A DNA stretch of 64,000 nucleotides. Source: Cyanidioschyzon merolae (taxonomy: Eukaryota). The DNA lies in NCBI GenBank assembly GCA_000091205.1, contig AP006499.2, one strand, 5' to 3'. Of this stretch, positions 26,881 to 54,029 are shown piece after piece; the stretch's first letter is position 1; each line of letters begins with the position of its first letter. The notes under the pieces are model-generated. The model was not told the DNA's origin. It saw only the letters and a program-made list of their open reading frames with translations, and searched no databases. The position numbers and the translations under genes are program-made.

Positions 26881-29530
26881 ATTTACTTGTGTCGATGTGT
26901 AGAACAGGTGAGCAGTCCAAAGAGCACACAGCATTGGATGGGTGCGATAGCCATATGGCTATGCTGATGAAGTCTGTGACGAGGTCCCTCTGCTTAATCG
27001 CTGAGAAACTTTTCTCGTCCGATACAGTGCCTTGCATGGGTTTCGGATGTTCGGCTTGAACGCTGTTTCCGTCAAAACGCCGCACGGGTGCAACCGCACG
27101 AAACCTCTCCCAGCCTTTAAACATCTAGGGAGCACCCCCTTTGGATTCTACGCTTCTACCAGCGAGCAAGCAAGAGAGATTTTTGCTGATGATTCAGAGG
27201 CCGTCAGAATAATTAGAAGGGTCTTCCTTAACGTTTACCCGAAAGGCTGTAGCACGCCAGCTCGACAGGAGTCTTCAAAAAAGCTCAAAGTGTTGACAGT
27301 ACGTGAGCGAAGAGCAACTGCACTCATGCAAACGTCTACCCCTACACCGCATGGAGACTTTCCAGTATGCGGGATTCTTGGATACAGCATCCTCCAAACC
27401 AGTGGGAAAATGAATTTTACTTAACGCGTCCTTGAGCCGCCGCCCGCGAGGGTGCTGTAAAGCTGCGCTGCCTCTGTACGACGTGCACAGACCCGCGCCT
27501 CGCACCCGAGAGAGCCCCCACTGGAGACTAGGCTGCTGGAGAGCCGCGTGCTCGATCAAGCCAATATTCCACAGGCGTTTCCATGACTAAAGCTGGCTGA
27601 GCGAGGAAATGCCCGTGGGTGAGGTGAATTCTCTGTTCTGAGCATTGAGAGTACGTCCACATCAGTGGAAACTTTTAGAAGCTTTCATCTAAATGAAATA
27701 ATTAGTGCATTTACCTCATCGGGCTGTGCCCGACTCATGAAATGACTAAGCGTTTGAACTAGACTGTCTCATTTCCGCACCAATGAAATGGCGCTTTTTT
27801 CCCGCGGAGCTGTTTGTTCACTTACGTTGTAGCTGTATATCAACGAATCCAATCATCACTATCCAAAAGCTGAGTTGCAGTTGGATGCTGAGGAAGAAAT
27901 CACTGTAGCAATCGAGGCCTCCGTAAGTTAGACCGACCCCACCCGTGTGTCAGAATAAAACGGAACGTCGCACTGCTCGCTTTTCCCATGCCTTTCTAAT
28001 TTTAGCCCAATCATTTCTTAGATGCGCATCCTCCGCACTCAAACTAAAATAATAAAAGTTTACAGGTTCACTCGTGGTTTTTTTGGATTCTCGTTCGTTT
28101 TTCCGTGGTAGCTTGTTCGACTCTTTGTTGCTGGAATGCGTTTCTTTGTCGAAATCATAATGATTCACGACGCCATTGAACAAGGATTCGTAAAGTACCC
28201 GATTATATTATCCAGTTGATACGTCCAAGATTCCATTTTTCTCCTTTCTTTGCGTCTAGTACGATGAAACAGCGCATTCTTCAAGTGTTTGACCTTTCTG
28301 CTTCAAGACAGCTGGAGCGCGTAGCAACTTGCACCGCTGGATTGACGACGACGAAGAAAATTCGACATCGTCCCTTGAATAGCGTTTCGTAAACGCACGC
28401 CAAACGCTCACTGAACCAATCACAGCAAGTAATCGATGCGGTTCGAAAAGCAAGTCCTTCCCTCTTGATCGCCATCGACGAAACGGGATTCCGCCGCAAT
28501 TATAAGCTATCTCTCACGGGACCCGCTCCCAGAGGCACCCATCTCATTTTCCGCGCGGAAAAGGTTCTTGGACTAGAACTAGAGTCGTCGCTGCGATCGC
28601 TTCCACTCGGGATTCCGTCACCGCTTTGAGCCTGGGGGCGTACACGGATCGAGATCTCTCGAGCGCTTTCACAACCTGGAGCTTCCTTCTGGTACTTGTT
28701 TCAGCATGGTCAACATAGCGTTCCGTGAATCCTCTATCGAATAGAACAGCGAGCACTCGGGCGCGCAGCAGACATAGTACTCGCCAAGTAGTCACCCAGC
28801 TCAAGCACGTCATCGTAGAGTTCGCCGTCGGACCCGGAAACGGAGGAGCGAACGGACAGGACCCTTTTCTGGCTGTCAAATTGGCATGTGCCGAACGATG
28901 AAGAAAGGGTTCATGATCTGCAGGGCGACCCTTTGAGGAACAGTTTTCGGGTATATAGGGGAACACTTGACCACAATCAGATGTCATCGCCGCGATGAGC
29001 GCACCGCGACTTTACGCGAGGAAGACGCAAATGGCAAGCAAAGCGTAGATCGCATCTCCCTTTCGAGCATTAGATGCGTGAGCAGCAGCCGGAAGCAGTG
29101 AAATGGTGGCTTTGACACTGCCATCAACATACTTCTACTTCTGAAAACGGAGCTAGAGGGACAAGAGAATTCTGCGTTGCTACAGGCGCATATGAGAGAG
29201 ACAAGGGAAGTAGTCAAACATCATGCCCGCCAAGACTGGTATTGACGAAAGTGAGAAGCGACCCAAAGCCTAGTCTTTTCTCCCGAGTTAGAGGGTCGGT
29301 CCTCGTTTGTTCAGAAATGAGTGTAGATCTGCCTCCACGTTGGGGGCCTATTAATGAAATGATTCATAATCCGCGTCCTCCTGCTGGCAAACCTGCTCTT
29401 TCTACTTATGGTCTATCACCTCAATTTAGTTCCAATCTCAGGTGAGCGTCATCGAATGCTTTTTCGCAGTTTTCAGCAGGAGCATTGGAGTGCATTCATT
29501 TTGAAGAAATGAATAATCCAAGGTGAAGCT

Positions 29531-31800
29531 ATGGATATGCAGGACAGAGATCCTGTTCACCAAGTGTCGCCGGCTGCCAGAGAAAAGCAAAAAGCAGTGT
29601 CTAGTCCAGAGGAAAAGGAGAGGACAAGAAAGAAACGGCAGGTGGCCCGAAGTCAATGGCCGCAAGAAAGACGAATGTACGACGATACGGTGGTGATAGC
29701 CTGTCTTTTCGGACATATCACGGATACGTACGAGGAAAAATTGCGAGACGCCATCAGAAACCGTGTCGATTCGTACTCCATGAGTACTAGAAAGGCGTCG
29801 TCAGGGCTAATGCATTTGGTGATGAAGATGAACGAAAACGTGACGCACATGGAAACAGTCGCGGTTCCGGACGAGTTTTTCGACAAGACCTTTATTCGTA
29901 ACCTAATGCTTGGCACAGGCGAAACACGGAGAGAAAATAGCGGGTTCACGCCCTCCACGAAAATTATGCCGAACTCCGCTTCGAGGGTACTCGAAACAGG
30001 GGTGACCAGGATATTTACGCATGCGGAGCGATGAAGTATCTCACGAACCTGAAGAACCATTTGACGATGAACCTCGAACGTTCCATGATACGCGCCGTGG
30101 TTGCACTCTACTCGGGCCTGTCTCGCAAAGGACTGCGGGCGATTATCAATGGCATCACGAAGGATCGCAAGCATGAAGATGAGATCGAATTCGTCGACAA
30201 GAAGACGTCACGCAGGAGCACAAATGAAGCGTCTGTAATCCAAGGGGTTATAAAAGAGCGCCGTACAGTGTTGGGGCTGGCGAATCCAGTAGAAGAGGTA
30301 TCAGATATGAAAAAAATGAAGAGAGACACTATCGCCTCGTCCTGCGATATTTCGTGTTTTTGGACCAAGAGGTCGAACGCAAGAAGGAGATGAAGCTGAG
30401 TGAGCAAAAAATGAAGATTGGGAGAGACGGAAGGCTGCCCTGACGGGGAAGCGCTTCAACGTCGATCCGATATGTAACGTCAAGTCATACTTTGTGGGTA
30501 TCGATTCAAGAGTCCTCCATGGAATCATGAAGGAGATCAGTCCGGAGTTCAATGTAAGGAAGATAGAGTTCACTGGTGAAACAAGTGAGACGTACTGGAA
30601 AAACATCTTCGATATCAAACATCTCAAAACGAGCAAGCAAAAGGTATTTACTGGGATGATTGAAACCGATGGAGTAGCCTCGTGTGTGCACTATCGGCGG
30701 TTGAAGAAAGATCGGCCAGTCCCTTCGTCGGCTGCGCCCGTTACGAAGGATGAAGAAAACAATGAGGAGGATCCTGCGATGCAGGAGGTGCAGGATAACG
30801 ACCTTGTCTTTGACATGACGAAGGATGAAGAAAAGAAGAAGGCGGATCCTGCGATGCAGAAAACGCAGGATAACGACTTTGCCGTCGGCGTGGACCCTGC
30901 GAATACGAATGTCATAAGTATCGCAGTACCTAAGCGTGCGGAAAACGGTACTGACGGTAATTTACGTCAGAAAGACATGCGTCTGTTGAGATTCTCGAGA
31001 GCGAGATTCTATTGGGAATCGGGAATAATGAATGCGAGGAAGAAAATCGACACTTAGAATGCAGGAATGAATAATCACCTGGAAGCTTTGAGCGAGGTGA
31101 CTAGCCGAGGAGCGTACTATGAAGCCTTTCGGAAATTCATGGAAGTTCGTGTTGCCCACTGGGATGCGCTGTGGGAAGAGTATACTAAGCCCCGGTGGGC
31201 TCTTTTGCGAATGAATCTATACGGTGAGAGGCAGCGGGCGTTCGCGAATCTTTTCAATCAGTTGAGCGCCCTCAAAGAGGATCAAAGTCAGAGGCTGGTA
31301 GTGGCATACGGAGCACGGCGATGGAAGACCAAAAAAGGGTATACGCCAGCTCCAACGACAAGAACGTACAAGGATTCCGCAAGGCGTTTCGTCACGATAC
31401 CTCTAGATGAGTTTCGAACATTGCATACACACCATGAACTGGGGTGTACATTTCAGAGAGTGGAGATAGAAAAGTGCCAGAGGAGCCCTGAGGATATAAA
31501 AAAGTATGGACCGCTGACGGAAGAGCAAATGGAAAGGATTTCGAAAGTTCGTGGACTACTTGCATTAGTAAGTAAAACCAGTGATGGTAAGAAACGTATG
31601 GAGTATGTGAACCGAGATTTTAATGCCGCTATCAATATTAGGGAATGTGCGGTGCTGGAGAATAGGCCTCCAAAGTAGACAAGAGAGAACTTTATTGGAC
31701 AACCTCTCAAAGTGGAACTATATGAGAGAAAGTTGGAAGCAGTGGTGGATGCCCGGTCCGAAAAGACGGGGAGGCGTCTGCACGTCAGCTGGAGAGGATT
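29531..31800 (+). mobile_element. Near-full-length TnpB/Fanzor-like RuvC-nuclease gene (OMEGA-type), disrupted. ORF pieces are 29531..30034, 30031..30393, 30494..31057 and 31067..31678; likely a pseudogene, or a gene with short introns.
   Basis: RuvC-I-like ...FAVGVDPANTNVISIAV... Then ...GYTPAPTTRTYKDSARRFVTIPLDEFRTLHTHHELGCTFQRVEIEKCQ... (the TnpB 'DPAYTSQxCxxCG' region with a zinc finger). RuvC-III ...RMEYVNRDFNAAINIRECAVL... An in-frame TAG at 31055-31057 separates the last two pieces in the same frame. Protein-level similarity to copy 4 continues past the stop at 31676-31678 (TRENFIGQPLKVELYERKL vs TRVNFVGQPLRIELYNDKL). Confidence 0.55.
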
Positions 31801-31958: not shown

Positions 31959-34391
31959 GTGAATTCGGGAAAGATGCGGGAATCAAAAATTTGCAAGCCA
32001 CGTGCGGTCTGCTTTCTGACGCCCTCAACAGCGTCGGCCACGCCAGCTAGAGGAAAGCCGACTCGAACTGCGCAATGTGAGACGCGCCCACAGCAGGACC
32101 TTGGGACGACAGAGTTCGCGGATGAGCAGGAGATCTCGGTAGGAGGCTTGGTTGACTCAACGTCTTCACGTGCGCAGCGGACCTGTGACTCATCAGGAGC
32201 GGTGTGTATTGAGCCCGTTTCAGAGTTCAGCGAGAGGCTTGTCGTGTCCACTGAAACGAACCCGCGTACCGAAGGTAACTGGTATTTTGAGCTTCCCTGG
32301 CCAGATGGAGGACTTTGCTCCCAAGACCAGGGAGGCGCTTGTAGAAAAGCTCCAGATGTTCGTCTTCCGCGAGGCGCCGCCCAGGGTGGGGCAGCTGCTA
32401 CGAGTGTACTGCTGAAGCACTCGGCTAGTCTTTCACGAGACTCGAGTTCTGCGAGGCGCCAGACGAAACCGGGCCCGTCCCAGACGGTTGCGTCTTTTCT
32501 TTTTAGCGCTCAAAAAGTGGTTGACGCTCCCCGGAATTTCTTCGTATCAAGCTGCGGATATGTTGCGAACGAGCCTGATTCAGCGAAAAATCTCTCAAAT
32601 TGCTGGCAGGTACCTCTCGAAGGTGCCTCAGACAAGCCTGCGGTCTGGAGGCAAGACGTTCAGGAAACTTCTCATGGTTATGAGTATTCTCTTGCGACAG
32701 AGCGTGTTGCGTTTGAAACTGCATCCGATGTGCTTGCCGATGAGGAGCAGAAATTATTCAACCAACAAGAATCGAGCCATCCTACAGTGCGGGACAACAT
32801 GTCGCCATCCTTCTCCACAAGCGGGGACTCTACGAACGAGGATCCTGAAAGGAACGAAATTACTCGTTTCACGCCACCAAGAGCTCCAGCTTCGAAGACA
32901 TCGTATGAGCGCAGACTTGCTGAGAGCAGGAATCTGTTCCCCGTTTCAAATCTGAATGTTGCAGATGCAGACCTCAGATCTCCGTTACATAGAAGCGCTT
33001 CACAACATCGGAGCGATGGAAGCCTAGCACCTCAAGTAAGAGAAATCAGATCTACACGACAGCTGAATAAGATACTCAGCGCACTATACAAATCAGGTCG
33101 GGCAGCGGATGCACTCAGTTTGTGTAGAATTGTGGAGAGAGAGGGACATATTGAGATAGATGTAGCATCCTACTCTATCCTTATCTCGTGTCTTGGGAAA
33201 TGCGGCGCGTCGGCACAAGCAATCGAAATGTTTCACAAAATGATAAGAAATGGCGTAGCGCCCAATGCATTCACGTTTTCAGCGCTCTTCGGAGCGTTGA
33301 CTGACGGTGCCTTCTTCGATCAGGCAATGCGGCTCTTTCAGATGATCAGAGCAAGCTATCCCAATGAGCTTAATGTCGTAGTATACAATGCCGTTCTGAA
33401 ATACGTGGGCCGGGCGGGCAGAATCGACGCAGCGTTGGATCTACTGGGGCAGATGGAACAAAACCGGAACGTGCAACCAGACATCGTAACATACGGGACA
33501 ATACTCGATATTTGCGCAAAGAAGCAAGACGTCTCGCTGGCGTATGCGGTTCTCGATCGGATGCGAAAACGTGGCATGCGACCGAACAACTTCTGTTACG
33601 CGTCTCTCATTGACGCATGTGCACGTGCGGGTCTCCCGGACCAGGCCGAGTCTCTGTTCCGGCAACTACGAGCCGAAGGCCTGGAGTACGACTTGTTTAT
33701 CTGCAATGCCCTGCTTGGCGCTTTCGCCCGGGCAAAAATGGTGGAGCGAGCTTTTCAGGCCTTCGAGGAAATGCGCAGCGCGGGCGTGCGAGGAGATCGC
33801 ATCACCTTTAACACCTTGATCACCGCAGCGGCGCGTGCACGCGAGTTCGACAAAGCCTGGAAAGCTTTCGAGACGATGAAAAAGTCGAACATTTCTGCAG
33901 ACGCAACGACATACAATGCTCTGATTGATGCCTGTAGCAAGAGCGGCATGACTGAGCTGGCGTTTGCGCTTTTCAACGAAATGCGCCAAGCTCATCTGCA
34001 GCCGACGATCTTTACCTTCAATGCTCTCATTGGAGCATGCACGAAATTACAGGATATGCGCAGAGCCACGCAGGTTTTAATGCTCATGCATGGCTTTGGT
34101 GTGTATCCGGATACATTTACACTGAACATTCTTTTAACAGCATGTGCGCGGAACGAAGACTTTGACTATGCGATAAGTTTGGTTCGGGAGTTCGAAACGA
34201 ATTATCGCGTTCGCCTGGATCGCCTCGGTTCTAGCATTGTAACAAACCTTTGCATCAAAGCGTGCGACTCTCAATCAAGGGACCGTTGCTTGAGGCTTCT
34301 TGAGGCTGCAGTACTCGAAGGCTACGAAACATTACGAGAGGTTCGAGATCGAGCTCGTAGCGCTTTCGCAAACCCAATGACTGGCTCATGA
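31959..34391 (+). CDS. Pentatricopeptide-repeat (PPR) protein with a long low-complexity N-terminal extension (organelle RNA metabolism)
   Basis: From ~aa 360 onward there are >10 tandem 35-aa PPR motifs (e.g. VASYSILISCLGKCGASAQAIEMFHKMIRNGVAPNAFTFSALFGAL...; ITFNTLITAAARAREFDKAWKAFETMKK...; TTYNALIDACSKSGMTELAFALFNEMRQAHLQP...). The true start may be downstream of the first ATG. Confidence 0.75.
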   Translation: MNSGKMRESKICKPRAVCFLTPSTASATPARGKPTRTAQCETRPQQDLGTTEFADEQEISVGGLVDSTSSRAQRTCDSSGAVCIEPVSEFSERLVVSTETNPRTEGNWYFELPWPDGGLCSQDQGGACRKAPDVRLPRGAAQGGAAATSVLLKHSASLSRDSSSARRQTKPGPSQTVASFLFSAQKVVDAPRNFFVSSCGYVANEPDSAKNLSNCWQVPLEGASDKPAVWRQDVQETSHGYEYSLATERVAFETASDVLADEEQKLFNQQESSHPTVRDNMSPSFSTSGDSTNEDPERNEITRFTPPRAPASKTSYERRLAESRNLFPVSNLNVADADLRSPLHRSASQHRSDGSLAPQVREIRSTRQLNKILSALYKSGRAADALSLCRIVEREGHIEIDVASYSILISCLGKCGASAQAIEMFHKMIRNGVAPNAFTFSALFGALTDGAFFDQAMRLFQMIRASYPNELNVVVYNAVLKYVGRAGRIDAALDLLGQMEQNRNVQPDIVTYGTILDICAKKQDVSLAYAVLDRMRKRGMRPNNFCYASLIDACARAGLPDQAESLFRQLRAEGLEYDLFICNALLGAFARAKMVERAFQAFEEMRSAGVRGDRITFNTLITAAARAREFDKAWKAFETMKKSNISADATTYNALIDACSKSGMTELAFALFNEMRQAHLQPTIFTFNALIGACTKLQDMRRATQVLMLMHGFGVYPDTFTLNILLTACARNEDFDYAISLVREFETNYRVRLDRLGSSIVTNLCIKACDSQSRDRCLRLLEAAVLEGYETLREVRDRARSAFANPMTGS

Positions 34392-34802: not shown

Positions 34803-36043
34803 AGCACCCGCCGTAGCTCGGTTGCAAGGGACTCCACCCCCGCCCGGTCGACCGCTCGCCAATCGTCCGGCCGCATGCAGCGTCACTGGCGGACCCAAGT
34901 ACCAAACGCCCCGTGCGAAAGGCACAGCGCCATCGCCGATGGCCCGGGGGCCGCTGCGCCGGCGCACTGACACCCAAACAAGATGCGTCCCGCCTTTACG
35001 CTCCATGATTGATGAATCTAGCCTGACCTTCCCGGATGCGCGCATGCTCTGGCGAGCAACAGCGGTATACGCCGTCAGCTCCATCCGTGTGCCATCGCCA
35101 GCCGCAGCTTTCGCCGCTCGCGCGCGCACGCACGAGCATGGCTGCGGACGCACACGCACGCCATGCGCATCTCAGCTATCATAGGCACAGGGAATGAACG
35201 TCGCTGGTGCGGCCGCGCGCTACCATATCGTGCAGCCGCATTGCAAATCAAGTCGCACACGCATCACCCGATACATGCGACGTCTGGCGCCGCTGCACGC
35301 TGCCCACAAATCATCGCAACATGATCGGAACTTGCCAGCGCCGGTGAATCTGCATGCAGCGCGCCACAGTCCAGATATGAGTACGAAGCGGGACTTTCGC
35401 GCTCTGTATGGTCGATCCCAACTGTAGCGTACAGCACGTCAACTGGCGGTCCACAGAACGGCGCATCGATTCCGGCTTCGTTACTTTGCAAAACGCTACA
35501 AGCGTCTGCGCGGTTGAGTCGCTCCTGCTGCGCGGACGTTACTGCATATGCCCCTGTTGCGTCTTTCTGAGACTGCATAGTGTGTGCGTAGACGCACGCA
35601 GGCGCACATCGCGGGCGTTGTCCATCCGGTCGCTCTTCAGCATTGCATTTCAGTAGCATGTGCGCCGCACATCAAACATGAATCTATGCGTGCGCATCGA
35701 GCGCGGCTTCCTCGGAGCCCAGCTTCCGCTGCAACGGAACACGCCGCAGCTGTGGGCAGAGGCGCGCTCATCGCCAGTGATGAGCGTACATGTGTCGAGC
35801 TGTTATTCGAGCGCACACAAGGAGAACTTGCATGCCGAGAATTTTCGCTCAGGGTGCCCTGAGATGGTGCTCGTGTGGGGTCATCAGGCGGACCCAGCAG
35901 TTCCTCCGTTCCATCAAGAGCCGAGTGAATAGCGGAGACTACAAGCGCTACCGAGTGACCCATGAGGCATCGCATGCTCCAGGCGCAGACGCTAGCAGTC
36001 GGGGCGCGTGCAGCGCAAGTGTCATATCAGGAGAGATGGTTTC
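34803..36043. repeat. Inverted-repeat arm A (~1.24 kb), partner of 39800..41037
   Basis: Reverse-complement identity is seen through identical or near-identical ORF translations on opposite strands (e.g. 35637..35975- equals 39868..40206+; 34788..35159- equals 40684..41073+), with only a few substitutions. The boundaries were mapped by loss of complementarity. Confidence 0.8.
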
Positions 36044-36618
36044 GGCCCCGCTCAAAAACTCTGATTTGGGATCTCAGTGATATGGGACTGAGCGGGGAGC
36101 GCGCATGTTTGCATAAATCTGTTCCAGATCGCCTGTGAAGTTCCCTCTTTCCGAGCAGATGTACGAATGAGGAACCAAGTGCAATCTTCCCGGATTTTCA
36201 GGATATCTGCTCAGCATGATCCAGGGTGAATTGCGCGATCACTCTACATATTCCAAGTTGTCTTCCACAAAAAGCATGAAGAATTCGGGTCATTCAGAAA
36301 CCAAGAAGCAGTATGCTAGTGCAAAACGAAACCGTGCTCATCACGTGCCGAACTTTTTTAAGAGCGCGCACGATGCTCCTTGTTATGCTTGCAGACCAAT
36401 GCGTGGAGCAAAGTAGTGCCCGCTTACCTAAATGCGGAGAGCAATCGCGCATTGAAACGATCCCTGCTAAGACTAATTGAGTTCTAGCCATGAAAATCTA
36501 CATAAAAGATTACTACTGGCTCTAAGCACAGCATGCTCGACAGGAAAAAAGCTCATTTCACGAAAATTTCCGAACTGATTCTGATCCGGAATGAAAATAC
36601 TTGAAAAAGAGAAAGCGT

Positions 36619-38538
36619 CTAAAAAGCCGGCAAGAATGCCTTGTCGCGTGCCAGCGGATTTGCTCTGCCATCTTGGGGTCCATTTCTGAGCATCTGAAGA
36701 ATCAAGACGGATGATAAAATGAAACCGATGTGACGCACTCGGACGTGTGATGGCACTAATGATCGCACTTTCAGACGAGGACGATCGCGGTTTCTCAGAA
36801 ACACATTTTCACCAATGGTCACAAAACGATCGAGGAAAGAGATCCCGTTGGGAAGAATCAAATTACCCGCCGAATCCCGCGGACAAGACTCCGAGTTTTC
36901 GACTACACAGACAGGAATGAATATATCCCTTCGACCGGATACGCGATGTACTTCCTCTTGTGCAAGATGCATCCTTCTAGCAAGATTCTCTTCAAATGTG
37001 AGGCCCTCTGGAGGGAGCGCATACCCATGTGTGAAAACCAGTATGCATCGCTCCCATACTCCACCATCGAAGAGACTCTTCAGTTCCTCCAAAACTAGCC
37101 TGAAACAATGGGATCGGTACGAATCCAGTCGCTCTATAATGCAGACAATGTCGATTTCCAAACCGCGAAGCGCAGCTGCGACACTCTCGCATGTTCCAGC
37201 GCGGCTCCATTTCTTAGAATCCTCCCCAGCTTCATCGTAAAAATATTTTTCAGAGGAAGGGATCTCAATCAAACGCAGAGACATCCCTTCCTTTTCTACA
37301 GGATAAATCAGAACGTTTTCGTTCGGCGAAGGAACGAATTCAGTCTTGCGATTTGGATGCGCTCTTTGTTCCCTTTCACGTTCATACGATCGCTCTTCTA
37401 TTACTTCGAGCCCATGCTCTGGATCTCGTTCTAAAATCTCATCATCCGATAGTATGAGAGCCATGGTGTGGTTGGTTCGTGCGACAGGGCTTCCAAGAAT
37501 GCGGTTAATTGTGGCAGACTTTCCTGCACCGATCGTGCCAGCGAAAAGAATAGTGGCATCTCGAAATGGAGAATGCGCGCGAACGACGTCCACTAATTGA
37601 TTTACAGTGGCGCACCCTGGCCGCGAATCATTCCCAAAGCCGCGAATGATTTCCTCATAGTTCCTTCTTTGGAGACCGACTTGCTTCATGCAAGCTGTGA
37701 ATGCTTCCGAGTCCGTCTTTTCGGCGTAAGCACAAAGCACTTTGCACGCAAGGTGCAGATTTTTTCCTTCAATAACGTCTTCTGGCTCAAACAGTGCATT
37801 GGCATCGAGCCCCGCATTCCGTGCAGAATCCAGAAAGAGCTGAATGCACCGCCGCATGCTGTCCAAATTCCGTGCATCTCCAGAGCACGGAGCGTCTATT
37901 CCGGCAATATGCAAGAAAACGTTAGGGTCGCTGAGCACAGCCCGAAGCCCGTTTGAAGAAGATTCCGATGCGCCTGTTTTTCGTGCGATCCACAACAGGC
38001 AGAGCCTTTCCAAGGCTTTTTCAGTGGCATCTGGAATAGCTCCCCAAGGTTGCTCCCCACAGACCTCCGACAGCGAAGGCTTATCAGAAAGCGTAGGGCT
38101 GGGCCCCTGCTGCCAACTCGACCCAGACTCTTTGAGATCTTTGCTATATGGCGCTGGGCTTGTCACCACGAGTGCTGCGAGACGAGACAGGTTAAGCTCT
38201 TGCTTCACGTGTATACCCATGTTGTAAAGATGTCGCTCATCGGATATGAAGAATTCTCCGTCAGCTGCGTTTTCCGCTCCGTGTCCTTCAGATTCCGTGC
38301 CTTTTCGGGACTGGCTAAGCACCCCTGGAAGAAGATTACGCCGAAAGAGTTGGCGCCGACGTGACCGAGTTCGTCCTGTGGAAGGCCTCGAGCCTCTCGT
38401 GGTTTTATCCGAGTCGGCTGTGCGCCGGCCAGAGACGTCGCGCCTTTCAGCAGCATCATCACCGCGAGGCTCGACACGCTCTGCAAAATCCAGTCTGACT
38501 TGTTCTCTAGTCTGCGGAGAGGTAAAGCTCTCCGTCAT
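36619..38538 (-). CDS. Toc34/Toc159-family GTPase (chloroplast outer-envelope translocon receptor-like; AIG1-type G domain) with an N-terminal extension
   Basis: G1 motif FAGTIGAGKSATIN. Then ...IDIVCIIERLDSYRSHCFRLVLEELKSLFDGGVWERCILVFTHGYALPPEGLTFEENLARR..., which aligns closely with Toc34 (IDVLLYVDRLDAYRVDNLD..GKGIWNKAIVALTHAQFSPPDGLPYDEF.SKR). The annotated N-terminus (38507-38538) overlaps the TnpB-remnant tail, so the true start is probably an internal Met. Confidence 0.6.
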   Translation of the reverse strand: MTESFTSPQTREQVRLDFAERVEPRGDDAAERRDVSGRRTADSDKTTRGSRPSTGRTRSRRRQLFRRNLLPGVLSQSRKGTESEGHGAENAADGEFFISDERHLYNMGIHVKQELNLSRLAALVVTSPAPYSKDLKESGSSWQQGPSPTLSDKPSLSEVCGEQPWGAIPDATEKALERLCLLWIARKTGASESSSNGLRAVLSDPNVFLHIAGIDAPCSGDARNLDSMRRCIQLFLDSARNAGLDANALFEPEDVIEGKNLHLACKVLCAYAEKTDSEAFTACMKQVGLQRRNYEEIIRGFGNDSRPGCATVNQLVDVVRAHSPFRDATILFAGTIGAGKSATINRILGSPVARTNHTMALILSDDEILERDPEHGLEVIEERSYEREREQRAHPNRKTEFVPSPNENVLIYPVEKEGMSLRLIEIPSSEKYFYDEAGEDSKKWSRAGTCESVAAALRGLEIDIVCIIERLDSYRSHCFRLVLEELKSLFDGGVWERCILVFTHGYALPPEGLTFEENLARRMHLAQEEVHRVSGRRDIFIPVCVVENSESCPRDSAGNLILPNGISFLDRFVTIGENVFLRNRDRPRLKVRSLVPSHVRVRHIGFILSSVLILQMLRNGPQDGRANPLARDKAFLPAF

Positions 38539-38824
38539 TTACGGTGCCCTGGAGGTGTCGAGTCCTGCAACTATGCACCTGAGACGCAGCTGAACGAAGC
38601 CCAAACGTTCTGCAGAATCTGAGTAAATTAATACCGGCGTGCAGACGCATACCAACTTTTTTTGACCGTCTCCATGCTATCGGTTTCAACTTGTCATTGT
38701 ACAGCTCGATCCTGAGAGGTTGCCCCACAAAGTTGACTCTTGTCAGCTCCTTGGGTCTCATTTTCAGCACCGCACATTTTCTGATATTGATGATGGCATG
38801 GAAGTCTCGGTTCACGAACTCCAT
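38400..38824 (-). mobile_element. 3'-terminal remnant of a TnpB/Fanzor-like element, copy 4
   Basis: Minus-strand ORF MEFVNRDFHAIINIRKCAVLKMRPKELTRVNFVGQPLRIELYNDKLKPIAWRRSKKVGMRLH.. (RuvC-III plus a conserved tail). The downstream nucleotides ...agttgaaaccgatagcatggagacggtcaaaaaaagttggtatgcgtctgcacgc... match the tails of copies 1-3. Confidence 0.5.
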
Positions 38825-39799
38825 GCGTTTATTGCCTCTGGATCAACGCACTATTGCTAGAGTTCCTCGAACTCGTACCCACTGTCCCACTACAGTCTCG
38901 TCATCCTCCCGTTGGGCATACATCTTTTGCTCAGTTGGCTCCCCTATTTTTCTTCGTCTTCGTTATTTCCTCTTCTTCGCTGCATGGTTGGCGAGAACGA
39001 GATGTTCCGTTTATTACTGCAGTCATCGATGACGGCCCTCAAGGATTCGCAAATTCCAGATCCATAACATTCTCACAGATTTTTACTTTTGGAAAAGAAC
39101 GCACTTAGAACGTATTTACTGAAACCTGGGAAAAAGCATTTGCTTACGCTCATCTGCGGACGGAACACAGATGAGGTGCAAGCCTCGAAATGACGCGATC
39201 GCAAATTTGCACAGTCCATTCGGTTTGGAAAGTCTTGATTAGAAAGTCTTCTGCTCTACTAGAACGAATCCGGATATGCTTGGGAGGACGCTGAGTTTAT
39301 TAAAGTCAAAAGTGGCCAGAAGTGCCCCGTTTCTTCACGCGAAGCATGGACCGCAGAACTACTACAAAGGAAACCGCTGTCGTCGGCTGGGTCGACACAC
39401 GCGCAAGGGTGGGTACGTCGTAGACCACGCAAACAAGGTCCCTGACTTCAGAATACCGCAAATTCCAGAAGATTTTCCACTGAAACCATATGTTGCAGTT
39501 GGTTCGTAAAGGTTTCTGGGGCTACGTTTGGACACCTTTCGTCGTGGCGAGGGAAAAATCTGCAGGGAGTTTCAAATAACGCTGCAATATGGACGACTAT
39601 GATGAGAAGACGCTTCTTTCCCCAACTGAGGCGCAACGGTTTTTACACCACTGCCAATATGACGATTAAGGCAAGTACTTACCTCTGAGAGTCCTGATGC
39701 AACCCTGTCAAAAACATATAGCGCAAAAGCACGAATAAGGTCACGGTCCTTCTGTGAGTGGCAGTATTTCACAACGTTGAGTTTTACTCGAAGCAGCTG

Positions 39800-41037
39800 G
39801 AAACCCTCTCTCCTGATATGACACTTGCGCTGCACGCGCCCCGACTGCTAGCGTCTGCGCCTGGAGCATGCGATGCCTCATGGGTCACTCAGTAGCGCTT
39901 GTAGTCTCCGCTATTCACTCGGCTCTTGATGGAACGGAGGAACTGCTGGGTCCGCCTGATGACCCCACACGAGCACCATCTCAGGGCACCCTGAGCGAAA
40001 ATTCTCGGCATGCAAGTTCTCCTTGTGTGCGCTCGAATAACAGCTCGACACATGTACGCTCATCACTGGCGATGAGCGCGCCTCTGCCCACAGCTGCAGC
40101 GTGTTCCGTTGCAGCGGAAGCTGGGCTCCGAGGAAGCCGCGCTCGATGCGCACGCATAGATTCATGTTTGATGTGCGGCGCACATGCTACTGAAATGCAA
40201 TGCTGAAGAGCGACCGGATGGACAACGCCCGCGATGTGCGCCTGCGTGCGTCTACGCACACACTATGCAGTCTCAGAAAGACGCAACAGGGGCATATGCA
40301 GTAACGTCCGCGCAGCAGGAGCGACTCAACCGCGCAGACGCTTGTAGCGTTTTGTAAAGTAACGAAGCCGGTATCGATGCGCCGTTCTGTGGACCGCCAG
40401 TTGACGTGCTGTACGCTACAGTTGGGATCGACCATACAGAGCGCGAAAGTCCCGCTTCGTACTCATATCTGGACTGTGGCGCGCTGCATGCAGATTCACC
40501 GGCGCTGGCAAGTTCCGATCATGTTGCGATGATTTGTGGGCAGCGTGCAGCGGCGCCAGACGTCGCATGTATCGGGTGATGCGTGTGCGACTTGATTTGC
40601 AATGCGGCTGCACGATATGGTAGCGCGCGGCCGCACCAGCGACGTTCATTCCCTGTGCCTATGATAGCTGAGATGCGCATGGCGTGCGTGTGCGTCCGCA
40701 GCCATGCTCGTGCGTGCGCGCGCGAGCGGCGAAAGCTGCGGCTGGCGATGGCACACGGATGGAGCTGACGGCGTATACCGCTGTTGCTCGCCAGAGCATG
40801 CGCACATCCGGGAAGGTCACGCAAGATTCATCAATCATGGAGCGTAACGGCGGGACGCATCTTGTTTGGGTGTCAGTGCGCCGGCGCAGCGGCCCCCGGG
40901 CCATCGGCGATGGCGCTGTGCCTTTCGCACGGGGCGTTTGGTACTTGGGTCCGCCAGTGACGCTGCATGCGGCCGGACGATTGGCGAGCGGTCGACCGGG
41001 CGGGGGTGGAGTCCCTTGCAACCGAGCTACGGCGGGT
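39800..41037. repeat. Inverted-repeat arm B (~1.24 kb), partner of 34803..36043
   Basis: See arm A. Near-perfect reverse complement. Together the arms bracket a 3.76-kb unique core holding the Toc-family GTPase gene and the TnpB remnant. Confidence 0.8.
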
Positions 41038-42253
41038 GTGCTGTATTTAGTTTTCATGGGTCGGAGGAGGTAACCTTCGCGATGCCGCTCCATGCGTCGC
41101 GACCGTATTGGAGAGAGCCACATTGTACCAATTGGCATGATGAACTGACCCGTTTGCGTAGATGCAACTAGCATTGAAAGAAATCGCAGCACGACTTCAT
41201 GAAGGATCCGAATCACGAAAATCGATACCACAGATTAATTGAACTTCCTCCAGTGCGCATTGGCCTTCTACACGGAGAATGGAGTATACTACACCGACGT
41301 CGAACTGCGCGACAATCTTCCATCTATTCGTCTTCATAGTCCAATCGGATAGATTACACCCGGGGTCCGAGAAAGATCCCTCAATTTTTGTGCGGGGCGT
41401 CGAGTCCACTGCGTCCAGTTCATTCTGTTCAGGGATCGTCTCCCTTTAGCTACGGCACGCATGTCCAACGCTTCGTGCATGATTGCGAAAAGGGTCTCAT
41501 GGAGGCTGAGCCCCCGATAGACGAGACCCCAATCAGTTCCGGCCAAAATGGTCGCGAAGTATTGTTGCTACGCAGGTTGCCGCACCCTCTGGTGGGACGC
41601 CTACTGCCCGCCAGCGAACGCGAGCGCTCCTATCTAAAAAATAGACGTAAGCGCTAAAACGGTTTTCGATGTGTAAAAGGCTTAGAAACTCCGTGAAAAG
41701 TTTGTCCTTCCGTGAAGGTGTGTAAATCAGACTCCCAGCAGGCAGCAACTGTTTCTGAAAACCTACCAGAAGGCGATCAAGCAGCCTTTCATTTACTGTT
41801 AACTCATATATGGGAAGTCTTTTTTCTGCCTCAGTCAGAATTCCGCGCCATGTGTCTAGTGCCTGTTGAGAAAACGCACGAAAGCCCAAAAGAAGCCAGC
41901 TTTCCTGCTTCCCTCCACTGGTAAGGTATGCGCGAGAGTCCTTAACGACAGTGCTTTTCCCTGCAACTTCGAATGCGATTTCCGGAAAGAGCCGCGCTTC
42001 CTCCGTTCGGATAAGACTAGGCAACAAGAAACTGTCCTTTAGACCGCGGATAACCTTCGGCGACAACCTAGTCATGAAACCAGGACGCTACGAGGCGCAT
42101 ACAGACGATAGAAATTTTGCCCGCATTCTAGCCACACGCCGCTCGCTCGCCGAAATGCACTGCAGGCAGCTGCTAAATAGATGACAAACGCTTAAATGCG
42201 AAGCAAAACAGACGCTGCTACAATGATCCATCGACGGCTTCTCGGGGCATTCG

Positions 42254-44872
42254 TTATGGAAACTCATAGGCGACTTCCAAAAGAGCAAAATCACATCCCG
42301 GTGCCGCGCGATACAGAGCCAGCAGGCAAGCCATTGGTTTGTTACGAATAGCGGCGAGTCCCTTCTCACGTAGCGAGCCGCGCAAGCTTGCGCCGAAGCG
42401 ACCCAGAAATGCTGTGCGTTTGTTGTAAGTTTTGGCGATCCCTGACCCGAAAACAGTTCTTCCAGGGGTGATGACGACAGGGATCCAGCTATTGTTGTCA
42501 TTCAGAGCGCGAAGGTGCCCAATGTGAATCTCATCGAAGTAAACAGTAGCGAATGAGGATCCTGCTAGCCCTAAAGCCTTCGCTTCCTCGAGCTGAGCCT
42601 TCTCAGGTTTTGAGGTGGATCTGAAGCACGAAAGATATCCGTATACCAGAACCTCTCGTCTTTCTCGTAGAAAGATTTCCGACTGGACTGCTCTAAGTCG
42701 CTCAAACTCAATGCAAAGGTTTTCAATTTTCTCCTGGCCTCCATACAGTGCTGCTAATTGCTCTAGCGTGTCAGTGTATCGAAAGGTGCTATGCTGGATC
42801 CTTCCAAGTGCGAATGTTTGACGTATCTTGACAGATTTTTTCCCCTCCGAGGATTGAATCCATCGAGCTAATGCCAGTATACGACGAACAAGACGATCCT
42901 GCAGAATTACTTTCGGAATATTTTCAGGGAGGCTCGTGCCCTCCGTTCTTTTTTGCTGTTCTCTTACTCCATCTAGCAGGTACATTGAGGTCCATCGGGT
43001 CGAATGTACCTCCATGATGCTGACACCATCAAAAGGAGCATTGTACAGCTCTCGCTTTTCGAGGGATGTTAGCAGGATTGCCGCACCTGGAACGCAGATA
43101 GCATCAAATGCATCGCGTTGGGAGGTTTCATAAAGGCGAATGCAGACGTCTCGCGCTTCGGATCCATCGCGCGCCAAAATGATTCTATATTTCCTAAAAA
43201 TGTAGTAGTCATCTGATGCACTCAGTATTTGCGGTGCACTCGTCCGTTCTGCAGACCTGTACGTCCCGCGCTCTCGATACAGAGGTGACACATGTGTCAC
43301 AATGCATGCTAGAGAGAAATACGAGCGGTCGTCCCATGCATCCAGAGCGCTGGTAAGAATGCAGGGGTGGTAGAGTTCACCCGTTCGACCACCGCCAAGC
43401 TTTGCAATAGGTCCGAAATCAAGTAACTCCTCATAATTATCTGAAAGCTTCCGAATAATGCCCTGGGGCGATGATGCATTCAGGTGAATCTCGCCTCTGC
43501 GTACACGGTAATTCTCTATGATAAGGATGTCACCGAGTTGAATGTGATAAAAATATTTGGAACAAAGCGAATTCCACACGACAACAGTAGCAGAATCCGC
43601 ACCGTCACCTATCTCAAATTCGAATTTGAATGGCACTGACTGCCGCATGTCACTCTTTTTCGGCCATGGCATTAGGGACGTCTTTCTGAGGACGCGCCCG
43701 ATGATTGGTCGCTTCACGTCTCCCATCAGCGCCCTGGCGATGCGCACCGCTGCACTAGTGACTGATTTAATCGAAGCTGGGTCTTCGACACGCTCTACGT
43801 TGCTAGGGTCTCGCAATCTGGAATCGACAGGTAAGGCATCAAACGCTCCAGGACCAAGATAACTCTTTCTCGACGATGCCAAAGGGACATTTGCAGCAGT
43901 CTCAAGCGGGGTGGATGACGTTGTCCAAGCGCATGTCAGGGGAACGTCTATCCAAAAATCCTCGTGGGGTCGACGTAGTACGAGACAGTCATACACAACG
44001 ATTACTCGAGGCGGGTAGAGTCCGCGCAATTCGTTGAAACGAACTGACCATTTTCTTATTTCTAAAATGCTCCCTCGATCTAGGTCACCGGACTGGACGA
44101 TTGAATTCAAATGTGGGTGTAGGCAAAAGCGTGTTTTCGTCTGCTCAACCGGATTGCAGACGGTAATGTCATACGCATCTGCATCCATCTCAGGGATTTC
44201 ATCTTTTGTGCCGTTGACCGTAAACCAATAGGCTTGATCCCGGATATAATGCCGGACGCATAGAACTAGGAACACGATTGAACCGCGGCATTCTTCCCCA
44301 GGAGCACACTCGTGGAGCTTTTCCGTGCCAGCAGTCGTGAATATTTGGTCTCGTTCCTTTGGCTCTGAAGAGCCGCTCTGAACCAGGCTTGAAGAGGCTG
44401 AAACCTGACCTGTGTTGGACTTTGCAAGCTTTTGATTTGCGACTTTTAACGTGCCCTCCCTCGGCCGCTTGCGCTGGTTTCCACGGTTTCCAGTCTGTCG
44501 CTTGCTGCGTGAGTCCCGCGAGTCAGACCCTTCGACCTGTACTGTACGATTCTCTACAGCCTTCTGCAGCGGCTTTGCTCGACTCTTTTGCAGCTCTTCG
44601 TCTTGCCTCCTTTGGAAAATAGGTTTCACATAGTCATCAGCCTTGGTGTCGCCGAAGCGTCCACTTTTACGAGGCATTAACCGTTCTGTACGAGAACGTT
44701 TGTTGTTTTCTCGGATACACTCGCAATCAGAAATTTGCGCCACATTCAAATTGGGCGCGTGCTGGACAGATGGTGCATCATAAGCACAGGATGTATCCAG
44801 CTGCGCGCAGCTTCCGCCTATATCAGTCAAAGATAGAATAGACCCCGTGAGGAAAGTCGGACGTACTCGCAC
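42254..44872 (-). CDS. Large hypothetical protein with possible OB-fold-like segments (RMI1/RPA/CST-like?); function unassigned
   Basis: 872-aa uninterrupted ORF with a basic/acidic low-complexity N-terminal third. The C-terminal part (...SFATVYFDEIHIGHLRALNDNNSWIPVVITPGRTVFG...) looks like a nucleic-acid-binding OB-fold, but I cannot place it. The first ~22 codons (44805-44872) lie inside a dispersed repeat, so the true start is probably an internal Met (~44677). Confidence 0.4.
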   Translation of the reverse strand: MRVRPTFLTGSILSLTDIGGSCAQLDTSCAYDAPSVQHAPNLNVAQISDCECIRENNKRSRTERLMPRKSGRFGDTKADDYVKPIFQRRQDEELQKSRAKPLQKAVENRTVQVEGSDSRDSRSKRQTGNRGNQRKRPREGTLKVANQKLAKSNTGQVSASSSLVQSGSSEPKERDQIFTTAGTEKLHECAPGEECRGSIVFLVLCVRHYIRDQAYWFTVNGTKDEIPEMDADAYDITVCNPVEQTKTRFCLHPHLNSIVQSGDLDRGSILEIRKWSVRFNELRGLYPPRVIVVYDCLVLRRPHEDFWIDVPLTCAWTTSSTPLETAANVPLASSRKSYLGPGAFDALPVDSRLRDPSNVERVEDPASIKSVTSAAVRIARALMGDVKRPIIGRVLRKTSLMPWPKKSDMRQSVPFKFEFEIGDGADSATVVVWNSLCSKYFYHIQLGDILIIENYRVRRGEIHLNASSPQGIIRKLSDNYEELLDFGPIAKLGGGRTGELYHPCILTSALDAWDDRSYFSLACIVTHVSPLYRERGTYRSAERTSAPQILSASDDYYIFRKYRIILARDGSEARDVCIRLYETSQRDAFDAICVPGAAILLTSLEKRELYNAPFDGVSIMEVHSTRWTSMYLLDGVREQQKRTEGTSLPENIPKVILQDRLVRRILALARWIQSSEGKKSVKIRQTFALGRIQHSTFRYTDTLEQLAALYGGQEKIENLCIEFERLRAVQSEIFLRERREVLVYGYLSCFRSTSKPEKAQLEEAKALGLAGSSFATVYFDEIHIGHLRALNDNNSWIPVVITPGRTVFGSGIAKTYNKRTAFLGRFGASLRGSLREKGLAAIRNKPMACLLALYRAAPGCDFALLEVAYEFP

Positions 44873-47635
44873 TATATTCTGGACCTATTTTGCACGACCA
44901 TCAGCACAAGTCATTGCAGTTTGCACCGCGACCGCTTCCTTCTCCTTTCCCGTATCTCCGACTTTCAATACGCTGGCGTCTCCTAGCCCTCCAGCTTCGA
45001 TGTCAGCAGGCGAAGGATGCCGATGGCTGCGTTCATTCGAACCCAGAGTTTCCTGCTTCCAGCCCTCATCGACGTACTTCATGCAAAGGCGGAAGTTGTG
45101 ATCTGCGCTTCTTTTAGCATTTTCATCCTTTTTGTCCACAACTCCGGTGCACCCTTCGCAGCGAGGACACTTGCCCGTTGTCCGGTGCCGCCATACGTCC
45201 ATCGCACGTCTTGCTCCGAGTGCCGCCCTGTGGCGCATGCCTGCTTGCAGTGTCGCTCGGTACACGCCCTCGACGGGTGCAGAGCGCTCCGCTCCATGCG
45301 CTCTTCAGTTTCTGTGCCCAGCGCCATACCCTGCGATCACAGGCTCGGGCTGGGCGATCCCCGCGGCAAGCACCCTCACTGCTGGGCGCGTAAACGCTCG
45401 CTGCTCGATTCGAGTACTCGGAATCCGCTCCCTCGCACGCTCTTCGTTTTTCGCGTACGCTTCCCATCGAAGCTGCCGACGAGCATCACGCGACTCGAGG
45501 TGCCGTGCCAGCTCATGAGTATTGTGCGCGCAGGTTCCATCCACTTGCGACGATGCGGGTCAGCCATCTGCGACTCCCTTCGTCTCCGGTCGCTCGCTCG
45601 CTCGCTTGCGTGTTCTTCTATCCCCATACTCGTTCGCTTCCGCTTCAGCGAAGATGGCAGGCGCGGGAGGAGAAGTCACGACTGTGGGCGTAACTCGGAC
45701 GTTTCCGATCCCGTGCCCCGGGACGGGGTGTCGGTTTCCACATGGGCGTCGGGCTTCGCCTCGGGTCTCACGGAGGCGCTGGTGCAACGCTTCGCTCTCC
45801 TTGGGCTCCTGCCGTTGCTAAGTGCACTGGATTGCAGGTTCACGAGGCCACGCATCTGTACAGCTTGCTGCTCATCGTCGCCGTGTTTCCTGTTCTGAGC
45901 AGGGGTGCGTTGGAGCTCTGATGGGGCCTTGAGGCATGTAGGGCGCTCACGACTGATAGCGGTGGATGCTGCCAGGCCATCGGTCTCGAACGAGGACACC
46001 ACGCCTCCTCGACTTTATGTGAGCGTTCTGTTTCTATCTGTTCCCTGCCTGTCGCATCTCTCTTTAGCGTCGTTCGCTTTTCGTTCCCCCAGCGGTTCAT
46101 GAGTGTCTCCGAAGTTTCGGGCGAAATTTGCGTAGTACGCTTCATGTACTCTATGCTGTCGATGGATACCTCCTCTTCTTCGATGTGCTCCTTGGCCTCC
46201 ATAGGACGTTTCCATGCCCTAATCCCTCGTGCGTGGGCGCCCACTTCGCAGCGAGGCGAAAAAGCCGCGAACCGGGGCGCGCGTACGAGCGACCTATAAA
46301 TGCGTTTACAGCAAGGCGAAAATCCATTCCATTCAGGGGCTCTGGAACAGTTCCCGAGGTGCAGAGGCTGTTTCACTCGCTCGGGTAGGCACTCGCAGGC
46401 TGCAGGTCTATAGTCTCCTCGACATGTTCGTCTTCCAGGATACTCAACGGAGGCTCACGCGCTCTGTATATCCGCCCAGCATATTCAAGTCGGCGAAGCG
46501 CCCGTCATGAAGAGCTCGTCCATGCCGTCCAGGCTGGTATCTGAGTCGTCATCCGCACGTATCCACGTCATCGAATCCTTCACGCGCCATGGGAATGAAT
46601 GCTGGCATGATCCAGGGTCGCGCGGCGTAGTTTTCCGCCCATATACACCTTTGAGTTATCCAGGCTGATTTGGGTCGCGAAGCGAATGCTGGCCTCGAAA
46701 TGCGCAACGTCGTTCGGCTATGGAGCCAAAGTGCCCGCGACGTCGATGAAAGCACAGTGCAGGTGAGGTGTGTCCCGACTACGCTTCGAGACAGTGACGG
46801 CATGAAAGGCCATCGATGCCAACGGTGCATCTACGAAGTTGTTCGGTTTCTCAGGGACCCCGATGCACTGGACGTACACGGTCCTAGGCAGGAGGTAAGC
46901 GCGCCACTGACGCATGCTGCAAAGAAGCGCATGTTTGCGGACGCGGAATCTGATATCCGGCGGGTGCGGGTGCATTTCGAAGTATCCCTTGCCGACAGTG
47001 GTGCCGTAGAATACCTCATACAAACAGCGAAGGAGGGAGTTTCCGAGATCGTATCCCGTGAGATGTAGCGCACTGCTTATTTGGGATGTGGTTTCGTTGA
47101 TGGTTGGAAAGCGAGAATATTTTGTGTTTCAAACGGAATCGATTATATGAGGTGAGGATTTGAACATACTTTCGGTATGAGCTCTTGAAGAAGTATTCGC
47201 ACGAAAACTTCCAACTTTTGCGTCGTCAACCGAGCGTAGCGGCCTGGTGCGCCCACGAGTAGCCTTGAAACATGGAGATCGGAAGCGTGCAGAATGCCTG
47301 ACTTGAGCGTGCAACGCGTAACTAAAGGAAAAGAGTTCAGGCTTCCTTGTACGAATTGCATCATGATATCGGCTATTTTAGGCAACGGTATGTGAGGATA
47401 TCTCGAATCACCTTGATGCTGGTGATGTAACGAATCCCTTCGGTGCAAAGTCGAGGGAGCCACTTTGAAGAGTCGACCGAGAATCCTAGAACGATGCATG
47501 AGTCCTGAGGCCCTCATTGCTGGACTATGAATACTCGGGTCCTGCATCTGAAAATGAGTTCGGGTGAAAAATCGAAATCGAGGAACACAGGCAGCAGCTC
47601 CGTGTTCTACTTCACTCCGACCCGGGTGCCGACTC
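44805..47635. repeat. Unclassified ~2.8-kb GC-rich dispersed repeat, copy 1 (full length)
   Basis: Identical ORF-track translations recur at 50.6-52.0 kb and 60.1-62.9 kb (e.g. the 293-aa ORF at 45017/50774/60270). End points were mapped where the copies diverge. There is no long conserved ORF and no recognisable transposase, RT or LTR/TIR structure. Confidence 0.75.
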
Positions 47636-50319: not shown

Positions 50320-50562
50320 TATCCAACAGTTGCCTCTGTCGAGAAAGAACGATCACCACACAACCCGAGGGCTTCTAGCGAGAATCTCCGGGCATTTTAC
50401 AGCGCACATGGAGCTGTTGCCGATCGCGGGAGCTCTGCGCCTGCACGCCGCTGCTGTGAGCTCGACGCTCGAAAAGCGATCGTGCCTTCCGAGGCGTCGC
50501 GCGTCACCACAAAATCGGTGGGTGCGCTCGAGCCAGCAACCTCGCCGATGCTGCAGCGGGCG

Positions 50563-51950: not shown

Positions 51951-52155
51951 GTTCTAACGCGGCCTCAAAACCTTTTTCTTGATCGCGGGACACCTACTTA
52001 GCTGGAACATTGTATGCAAAATCGCTCATGTTTGTTAATACAGAGACCCCGGAGGCACATTCACATGCACGTTCGGGCCCACATTCTCATTCGAAAAAAC
52101 TAACATACAAGTAAGTTCCACAATGCCAAATCTGGCGTGGTTTATGGCGGTACAA

Positions 52156-53922: not shown

Positions 53923-54029
53923 GGTCAGCTAAACCCGTCTCCAGTAAAGCAAGGGAAACCAGCTGTGCACGCACGCCTTTTATCGAGGGACTGCCGTTTT
54001 CGAAATCGCGTTGTATGGATCGCTAACTG

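Follow-up and report, generated by a model that had tools for sequence, protein, structure and literature searches.

The described system closest to the locus presented here is the FLNA-EMD segment at Xq28 in humans and other eutherians, which lies between inverted repeats of ~11 kb and has reportedly inverted recurrently, according to work by Small and colleagues in 1997 and Caceres and colleagues in 2007. We describe a comparable arrangement in a 64,000-nucleotide stretch of DNA from a red alga, Cyanidioschyzon merolae 10D (contig AP006499.2, assembly GCA_000091205.1; hereafter the window), where two inverted copies of a 1239-nt sequence enclose a segment carrying the gene for a Toc34-like GTPase, a gene for the mitochondrial ribosomal protein mL41, and the remnant of a Fanzor1 (TnpB-like) element. 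The two systems resemble each other in having kilobase-scale inverted low-copy repeats at least 99% identical around a few genes, with breakpoints in the repeats and both orientations found among genomes; in both, the arms appear to be homogenised by gene conversion, the pair appears to persist across species, and the flip appears neutral since no gene is cut. They differ in that the host here has a haploid-phase genome of 16.5 Mb in which repeats are very scarce, the arms are shorter by a factor of ten, arm homology across genera is argued from position, and polymorphism within C. merolae is seen only in short-read contigs. By this analogy, the locus is best regarded as a structure of a type already known, to which the FLNA-EMD inversion belongs, found here in new surroundings.

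Other systems invite comparison. In plastid genomes, whose large inverted repeat mediates flip-flop isomerisation, homologous recombination between identical inverted copies likewise reverses the segment between them, and the copies evolve in concert and are GC-richer than single-copy DNA; plastid arms, however, are organellar, 10-25 kb long and carry rRNA genes, with isomers present at about 1:1 in each cell, whereas the arms here are nuclear and non-coding. Site-specific inversion systems (FLP/FRT of the yeast 2-micron plasmid; bacterial Hin, Gin and Fim) also hold a segment between inverted repeats in two orientations, but they rely on a dedicated recombinase, short defined sites and usually a moved promoter, while here no recombinase is encoded and no promoter changes its gene. 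Foldback elements (Drosophila FB, Galileo) and composite transposons have long inverted termini around unrelated cargo and can cause inversions. Those elements are marked by target-site duplications, several copies per genome, insertion sites that vary, and either a transposase or sub-repeats to which a transposase binds; none of these was found at this locus.

Geometry and content of the inverted repeat

Repeat finding and self-BLAST of the window both place a single inverted pair at this locus, 34805-36043 against 41038-39800. The left arm (34805..36043) and the right arm (39800..41038), its reverse complement, are non-coding and were assigned no strand. They align without a gap over 1239 nt each at 99.27% identity, differing at nine sites (positions 191, 216, 219, 235, 667, 684, 941, 1148 and 1233, numbered from the outer end), and stand 3756 nt apart. 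A repeat of 1239 nt cannot arise by chance within 64 kb. All four boundaries are sharp, with the 300 nt outside each aligning no better than shuffled sequence and no homology detected past the arm ends in that comparison. The intervening core, the putative invertible segment (36044..39799, 3756 nt, likewise without strand), is thus bounded precisely.

Both arms occupy intergenic spacers into which genes converge. The left arm begins 413 nt past the stop codon of a gene for a PPR protein and finishes 575 nt from the stop codon of the Toc34-like gene; the right arm begins 290 nt past the mL41 stop codon and finishes 494 nt from that of an ATP10-like gene. All four bordering genes therefore direct their 3' ends at an arm. 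Because the arms lie in 3'-to-3' spacers and are nearly identical, flipping the core should leave every gene and every promoter intact.

The arms are non-coding and contain no known RNA. Their GC content is 61%, against 46-51% in the adjoining unique spacers. Open reading frames (ORFs) in the arms are short and occur on both strands, reaching at most 134 amino acids, or 190 if read in from the flank; none of them matches a Pfam model, and their codon usage scores as non-coding by a measure trained on the genes of the window. The best-scoring arm ORF (131 amino acids) has no homolog among 1.8 billion representative proteins in an exhaustive HMMER search, which returned the ORF itself plus one weak and probably spurious match (E 3.2e-05, 34% identity to a protein of 1102 amino acids). 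Five arm ORFs looked up by exact sequence were not present as NCBI-sourced proteins. Rfam returned no family in the whole window at the gathering threshold, nor in the arm-bearing spacers of three species at E <= 1, and no tRNA or tmRNA gene was found.

Features of mobile elements were sought as well. No target-site duplication of at least 3 nt flanks the arms, whether each boundary is paired with its own flank or with the flank that an inversion would have swapped; no terminal inverted motif was found at the arm ends; and internal repeats within the arms occur only at chance level. Among arm and core ORFs, Pfam matches are limited to host genes, with no transposase, and Pfam scans of core, arm and flank ORFs detected no recombinase gene. 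When metagenome contigs were scanned with a 28-mer from the arm, the arm was found at this locus only, and in the look-up of one arm ORF all ten places shown, from 19 contigs read, lie at this locus; this measure of copy number describes metagenome contigs rather than the complete 10D genome.

A preliminary description of this DNA had reported near-perfect inverted arms that were GC-rich, full of spurious ORFs and free of any recognisable transposase, and all of this is borne out. Its arm coordinates were right as to location and off by 1-2 nt, now settled by the self-alignment it had proposed. It had also suggested looking for target-site duplications just outside the arms, of which there are none in either pairing, and had considered that the arm might be a common genome-wide repeat, for which the contigs scanned supply no further arm context.

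Orientation in related lineages and natural populations

Gene order at the locus was compared with that of two related lineages. The order in 10D is PPR(+), arm, Toc34(-), Fanzor1 fragment, mL41(+), arm, ATP10(-), RADX(-). A cyanidiophyte lineage represented by L011 has PPR(+), mL41(-), MA3(-), CAP59(-), Toc34(+), ATP10(-), RADX(-), and Cyanidiococcus yangmingshanensis (L049, GCA_013995675.1) matches this order from mL41 to RADX, PPR not being found in L049. Relative to both relatives, exactly the inter-arm segment is inverted in 10D with respect to the flanking genes, and the MA3-CAP59 block is displaced by ~15 kb. The enclosed genes are at the syntenic place next to ATP10-RADX in all three lineages. 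A fourth lineage (Cyanidium) was sought with a Toc34 profile, which found no further homologs at E <= 1e-10.

Cyanidiococcus has an inverted repeat of its own in the same two intergenic places. Arms of 1903 nt, about 100% identical, at 963-2865 and 12417-14319 of L049 enclose the region from mL41 to Toc34, one arm just outside mL41 and the other between Toc34 and ATP10. The inner spacers are also of similar length in C. merolae and Cyanidiococcus: the one that follows the mL41 stop codon measures 290 versus 286 nt, and the one that follows that of Toc34 measures 575 versus 514 nt. In the Cyanidiococcus genome repeats account for only 0.59% of the sequence (PMC9812998), so that chance placement at the same two spacers would be very unlikely. 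Between the C. merolae arms and either the Cyanidiococcus arms or the L011 spacers, sensitive blastn, six-frame blastp and nhmmer found similarity at chance level only, which is expected of non-coding DNA at such divergence; for orthologous proteins, identity is no more than 30-84%, in most cases 48-54%. A separate observation on the L049 right arm is that its outer end lies only ~12 nt from the ATP10 stop codon (14319-14331); the arm must therefore contain the ATP10 3' untranslated region (UTR), and the other copy has a duplicate of it.

A second Cyanidiococcus assembly, from strain 8.1.23 F7 (L050, GCA_026122185.1), has the same arm-core-arm unit at 98.9% identity with the flanks exchanged and reversed. 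Both assemblies are chromosome-scale, and L050 derives from PacBio sequencing in which the size selection was 15 kb. Since the flanks are swapped between the two, the segment is in opposite orientation in the two strains. A published comparison of the two strains reports few exceptions to collinearity, among them an inversion on the largest chromosome, and we found in it no description of this 13-kb inversion (PMC9812998). An alignment of all four arms has six sites that set the pair of arms in one strain apart from the pair in the other; no site follows orthology, and the two arms of L049 are identical. By this alignment, the Cyanidiococcus arms undergo concerted evolution by gene conversion.

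The L011 lineage serves as a natural control, with no inverted repeat and one orientation. That single orientation is seen in four assembly records (L011, L051, L052 and L053; from NCBI, two from JGI, and Logan), which may come from one strain. The same two spacers of this lineage, the one after PPR and before mL41 and the one between Toc34 and ATP10, contain instead a direct repeat of ~200 bp, ~75% identical (L011 2006-2202 and ~12209-12400; also in L051), with a local alignment score of 71 against a shuffle maximum of 20.

Populations of C. merolae were surveyed in hot-spring metagenome contigs, short-read assemblies that are C. merolae-like and 99.7-99.9% identical to 10D. All four possible junctions of flank, arm and core are present among them: PPR-arm-Toc34 in L004-7, ATP10-arm-mL41 in L019 (the same contig as L030) and L031, PPR-arm-mL41 in L034 and the Logan contig L035, and ATP10-arm-Toc34 in L001-3. 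Arm haplotypes recur across samples and track the side of the core: the arm on the Toc34 side carries the bases of the 10D left arm at 191, 216, 219 and 1233, together with 580T/582C, while the arm on the mL41 side carries mostly right-arm bases. This consistent phasing across samples argues that the contigs are not random chimeras. The C. merolae arm haplotypes are mosaic. We had at one point read 580T/582C as a change in both arms of the wild strains and have withdrawn that reading, the mL41-side arm of L019, L031 and L034-38 lacking these bases. Orientation polymorphism within C. merolae, read as it is from short-read contigs, is likely but unproven.

The same contigs bear on the age of the pair. 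Four of the nine arm differences (191, 216, 219 and 1233) are common to 10D and the wild strains, so the repeat is older than the split of these strains, and the two arms have diverged by 0.73%, compared with 0.1-0.2% between strains. The preliminary description left a choice between recent origin and ongoing homogenisation as the cause of the near-identity of the arms; the shared arm differences, together with concerted evolution in Cyanidiococcus, favour homogenisation.

Explanations for the repeat pair

We consider it probable that the two arms form a low-copy inverted repeat, in other words non-coding DNA segmentally duplicated in inverted orientation, on which homologous recombination acts to invert the core and gene conversion to homogenise the arms, and that the locus is not a mobile element. 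According to this explanation, two 1239-nt copies in 3'-to-3' spacers would bound a 3.76-kb segment containing the Toc34-like gene, the dead Fanzor1 fragment and mL41. Crossing-over between the arms would flip that segment, which 10D carries reversed with respect to related genera, while gene conversion without crossing-over would hold the arms nearly identical. In either orientation each gene would retain its promoter and the same downstream sequence, making the flip essentially neutral. We infer that recombination between the arms caused the inversion in C. merolae and that both orientations still segregate in its populations. Non-crossover conversion likely also raised the GC content of the arms, which exceeds that of the adjoining spacers by 8-12 points in C. 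merolae and in Cyanidiococcus alike. The preliminary description had offered, as one of its readings, a palindromic duplication prone to forming hairpins or cruciforms and to inversion. Inversion is the part that finds support, both in the comparison of 10D with its two relatives and in that of the two Cyanidiococcus assemblies. Cruciform formation is improbable with a 3.8-kb spacer.

The pair is possibly ancient. The chance that it was inherited from the common ancestor of Cyanidioschyzon and Cyanidiococcus we put at a little over one half. Position and the genome-wide scarcity of repeats are the grounds on which we favour a single ancient origin over two.

Several observations weigh against these interpretations. 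No sequence common to the arms of the two genera could be detected, and the case for common origin is purely positional. Cyanidiococcus has a closer relative in the L011 lineage than in C. merolae, and that lineage lacks the inverted repeat and has only its short, diverged direct repeat in the same two spacers; one gain followed by one loss is no more parsimonious than two independent gains. As to C. merolae, short-read assemblies cannot rigorously phase a 1.24-kb repeat, and no sample yielding both junctions of one orientation was found among the contigs searched. Most contigs keep the arm haplotype, over its full length, together with its side of the core. The exchange would then fall in the outer 190 nt (15% of the arm), a pattern for which recombination and boundary joins introduced by an assembler are equally good accounts. 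Finally, C. merolae has no site at which both arms changed together since 10D and the wild strains split, although little time has elapsed.

Several of these same observations would suit a one-off by-product, the alternative that survives best. On that account, the inverted duplication was a product of the inversion, which arose by staggered double-strand breaks or by template switching during replication; a single-copy spacer sequence was copied to the other breakpoint as the segment first turned round, and the Cyanidiococcus repeat arose separately in like manner. The sharp ends of the arms and their want of transposon features suit such an origin, as do the inverted-repeat-free L011 lineage, the unrelated arm sequences of the two genera, and the presence in the window of other young duplications, 99.8-99.9% identical and located at synteny breakpoints (detailed below), which mark a region that duplicates and rearranges. 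It requires, though, two independent placements of kilobase repeats in the same two spacers, in one genus against a background of so few repeats. Moreover, opposite orientations with both arms present, in Cyanidiococcus and in contigs L001 and L002, would call for arm recombination afterwards in any case, and long residence is indicated by the arm differences that 10D has in common with wild strains, by the raised GC content and by the concerted evolution. We regard the by-product account as unlikely.

A more ambitious proposal would have selection keep an ancient nuclear "flip-flop" module on both sides of the mL41-to-Toc34 segment from a time that precedes the split of the genera, either because an unrecognised element in the arm (a terminator or insulator, a replication origin, a non-coding RNA) is needed at both convergent spacers or because of orientation. 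This strikes us as improbable. Less credible again, and very improbable in our estimate, is a maintained functional inversion switch, or functional arms, in which orientation matters (for example through which gene converges on Toc34 or mL41) or an arm element is needed at both spacers. Such a function might explain why the position is conserved across two deeply diverged genera with compact genomes, why the inner spacers are similar in length, and why both orientations are found in both genera (for C. merolae, in short-read contigs). Against it stand the lack, in our searches, of a recombinase gene and of any known RNA or conserved sequence in the arms, and the sister lineage L011 manages without an inverted repeat. 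The identity of the arms also means that each gene keeps the same 1.2-1.9 kb downstream either way.

The first reading in the preliminary description, a foldback or composite transposon with kilobase terminal inverted repeats and the Toc34-like gene as cargo, fails every test run (target-site duplication, arm structure, transposase, copies and synteny), and we hold it to be highly improbable. Long terminal inverted copies do enclose a cargo, part of which is a fragment of the TnpB family (Fanzor1), and the arm haplotype moves as a whole with the core in metagenome contigs, as if the entire unit had turned. But target-site duplications, terminal motifs, sub-repeats and a transposase are all lacking; the arm occurs at this locus only in the contigs scanned; the enclosed genes are at their ancestral place beside ATP10-RADX in three lineages; and the Fanzor1 piece is a short, stop-broken fragment of a family with ~150-250 copies. 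An artefact of the reference assembly (a collapsed or chimeric contig), a concern also voiced in the preliminary description, can hardly be entertained, for although near-identical repeats are a classic source of misassembly, we found no specific support for one here, the arms differ at nine sites, the same core with both arms and both flanks turns up in many independent metagenome assemblies (contigs L001, L008, L009, L014 and L026 hold the core with portions of both arms), and the 10D sequence has been completed from telomere to telomere (PMC1955436).

Genes and repeats of the region, and significance

The core contains two host genes, not exactly one as first described, mL41 having been overlooked. 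The larger (36619..38538, minus strand) encodes an AIG1-type GTPase of 639 amino acids, identical to the 10D protein BAM82044.1, which is annotated as "similar to chloroplast outer membrane protein Toc34"; a look-up of that protein in the contig index gave no record. It scores 35.6 bits against the Pfam AIG1 model, whose cutoff is 27, and its best matches in PDB are pea Toc34 (3bb1, E 4e-18) and Chlamydomonas Toc34 (7vcf_G, E 2e-15). These similarities assign it to the TOC-type (Toc34/Toc159) class, with a putative role in plastid import. The smaller gene (39276..39509, plus strand) encodes mL41, 77 amino acids (BAM82045.1; Pfam MRP-L27, E 2.7e-12); it is conserved in L011 and L049, and NCBI and UniRef names agree with the assignment. 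Its 3' spacer includes a non-coding stretch at ~39570-39640 of the window (CTCAGTTGGGGAAAGAAGC...TTCTCATCAT) that is conserved with L011 ~2640-2700 (nhmmer E 6e-4) and may be a 3'-UTR element. To the left of the arms is the PPR protein gene (31974..34391, plus strand), its 3' end toward the left arm; to the right, on the minus strand (41533..44872), are the ATP10-like gene (41533-42075), its 3' end toward the right arm, and a RADX-like gene (42254-44872). The risk seen earlier in an unstable configuration around an essential gene was overstated, as both arms are in 3'-to-3' intergenic spacers, and the Toc34-like gene is under no evident threat from the locus.

Between the two genes, on the minus strand, is a degenerate 3' fragment of ~550 nt with stop-broken frames (38642..39189) that resembles the interspersed element CMe-1A. 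A leftover ORF (38507-38824) bears the motif NRDFHAIINI, which is RuvC-III-like. The fragment is 70-76% identical, by self-BLAST, to four others in the window, giving five degenerate Fanzor1/CMe-1A (WSV486-like) fragments in all (7481-7774, 19481-20088, 29400-29523, 31546-31709 and 38642-39189) with the same range of mutual identity. The copy at 31.5 kb keeps the motifs DEFRT... and NRDFNAAINI, and one fragment sits where the relatives have MA3-CAP59. None of the Fanzor-like ORFs among the window ORFs searched matches a Pfam or PDB profile. CMe-1A is the Fanzor1 interspersed family of C. merolae described by Bao and Jurka in 2013 (PMC3627910), and its counterpart in an earlier account of the species is the "253 copies of a WSV486-like element" (PMC1955436); the family has ~150-250 copies about 80% identical to their consensus (PMC3627910, PMC1955436). 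Assignment of the core remnant to Fanzor1/CMe-1A draws on its motifs and on these two reports. Like the family, the remnant would be a degenerate copy with the NRDxxAxxNI motif; it differs in being only a ~550-nt 3' fragment with stop codons, and is probably a passenger rather than the agent of inversion.

The window contains other repeats. A second inverted pair (54028-55394 and 56856-58222), with arms of 1367 nt that are 99.78% identical and 1461 nt apart, lies between the gene for an MA3-domain protein (52156-53922, minus strand) and that for a CAP59 mannosyltransferase (58887-59912, plus strand). In both relatives these genes are neighbours that point the same way; in the window they point in opposite directions. 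Contigs from wild strains break at the boundary of this second pair, from which we conclude that the pair is present in natural strains. Three direct copies of another sequence (44803-47621, 50560-51951 and 60111-62874) are 1.4-2.8 kb long, 99.8-99.9% identical, 56-59% GC and non-coding in appearance, and this sequence begins a short way upstream of RADX. The direct copies and the two inverted pairs between them occupy every synteny breakpoint that separates the window from the relatives, where the MA3-CAP59 block is relocated and CAP59 inverted. Over its full 30 kb, the stretch has the look of a hotspot of duplication and rearrangement. One contig (L054, JGI 3300001340) joins window positions 56860-61447 to 51952-52678, running from CAP59 through the direct repeat into the MA3-side sequence that follows a different copy; it is either a recombinant between direct repeat copies or an assembly chimera. 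Apart from these, two tandem units of 75 nt, 81-86% identical (30743-30892), lie inside an ORF of 187 amino acids with coding-like codon usage (30494-31057, plus strand) and are an internal protein repeat of an uncharacterised gene.

C. merolae is a model of the minimal, repeat-poor eukaryotic genome and has efficient homologous recombination. The locus shows that kilobase inverted repeats exist in such a genome and mark an inverted segment there, and the equivalent pair in Cyanidiococcus is one that gene conversion demonstrably homogenises and whose enclosed segment flips between strains. For assemblies of Cyanidiophyceae, and for synteny inferred from them, this is a warning, since short reads cannot call the orientation of the segment. 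Because gene targeting works in C. merolae, the locus should be tractable for measuring the rates of inversion and of gene conversion, and GC-biased conversion as well. If the pairs of the two genera are orthologous, they would be among the longest-lived nuclear inverted repeats known outside animals.

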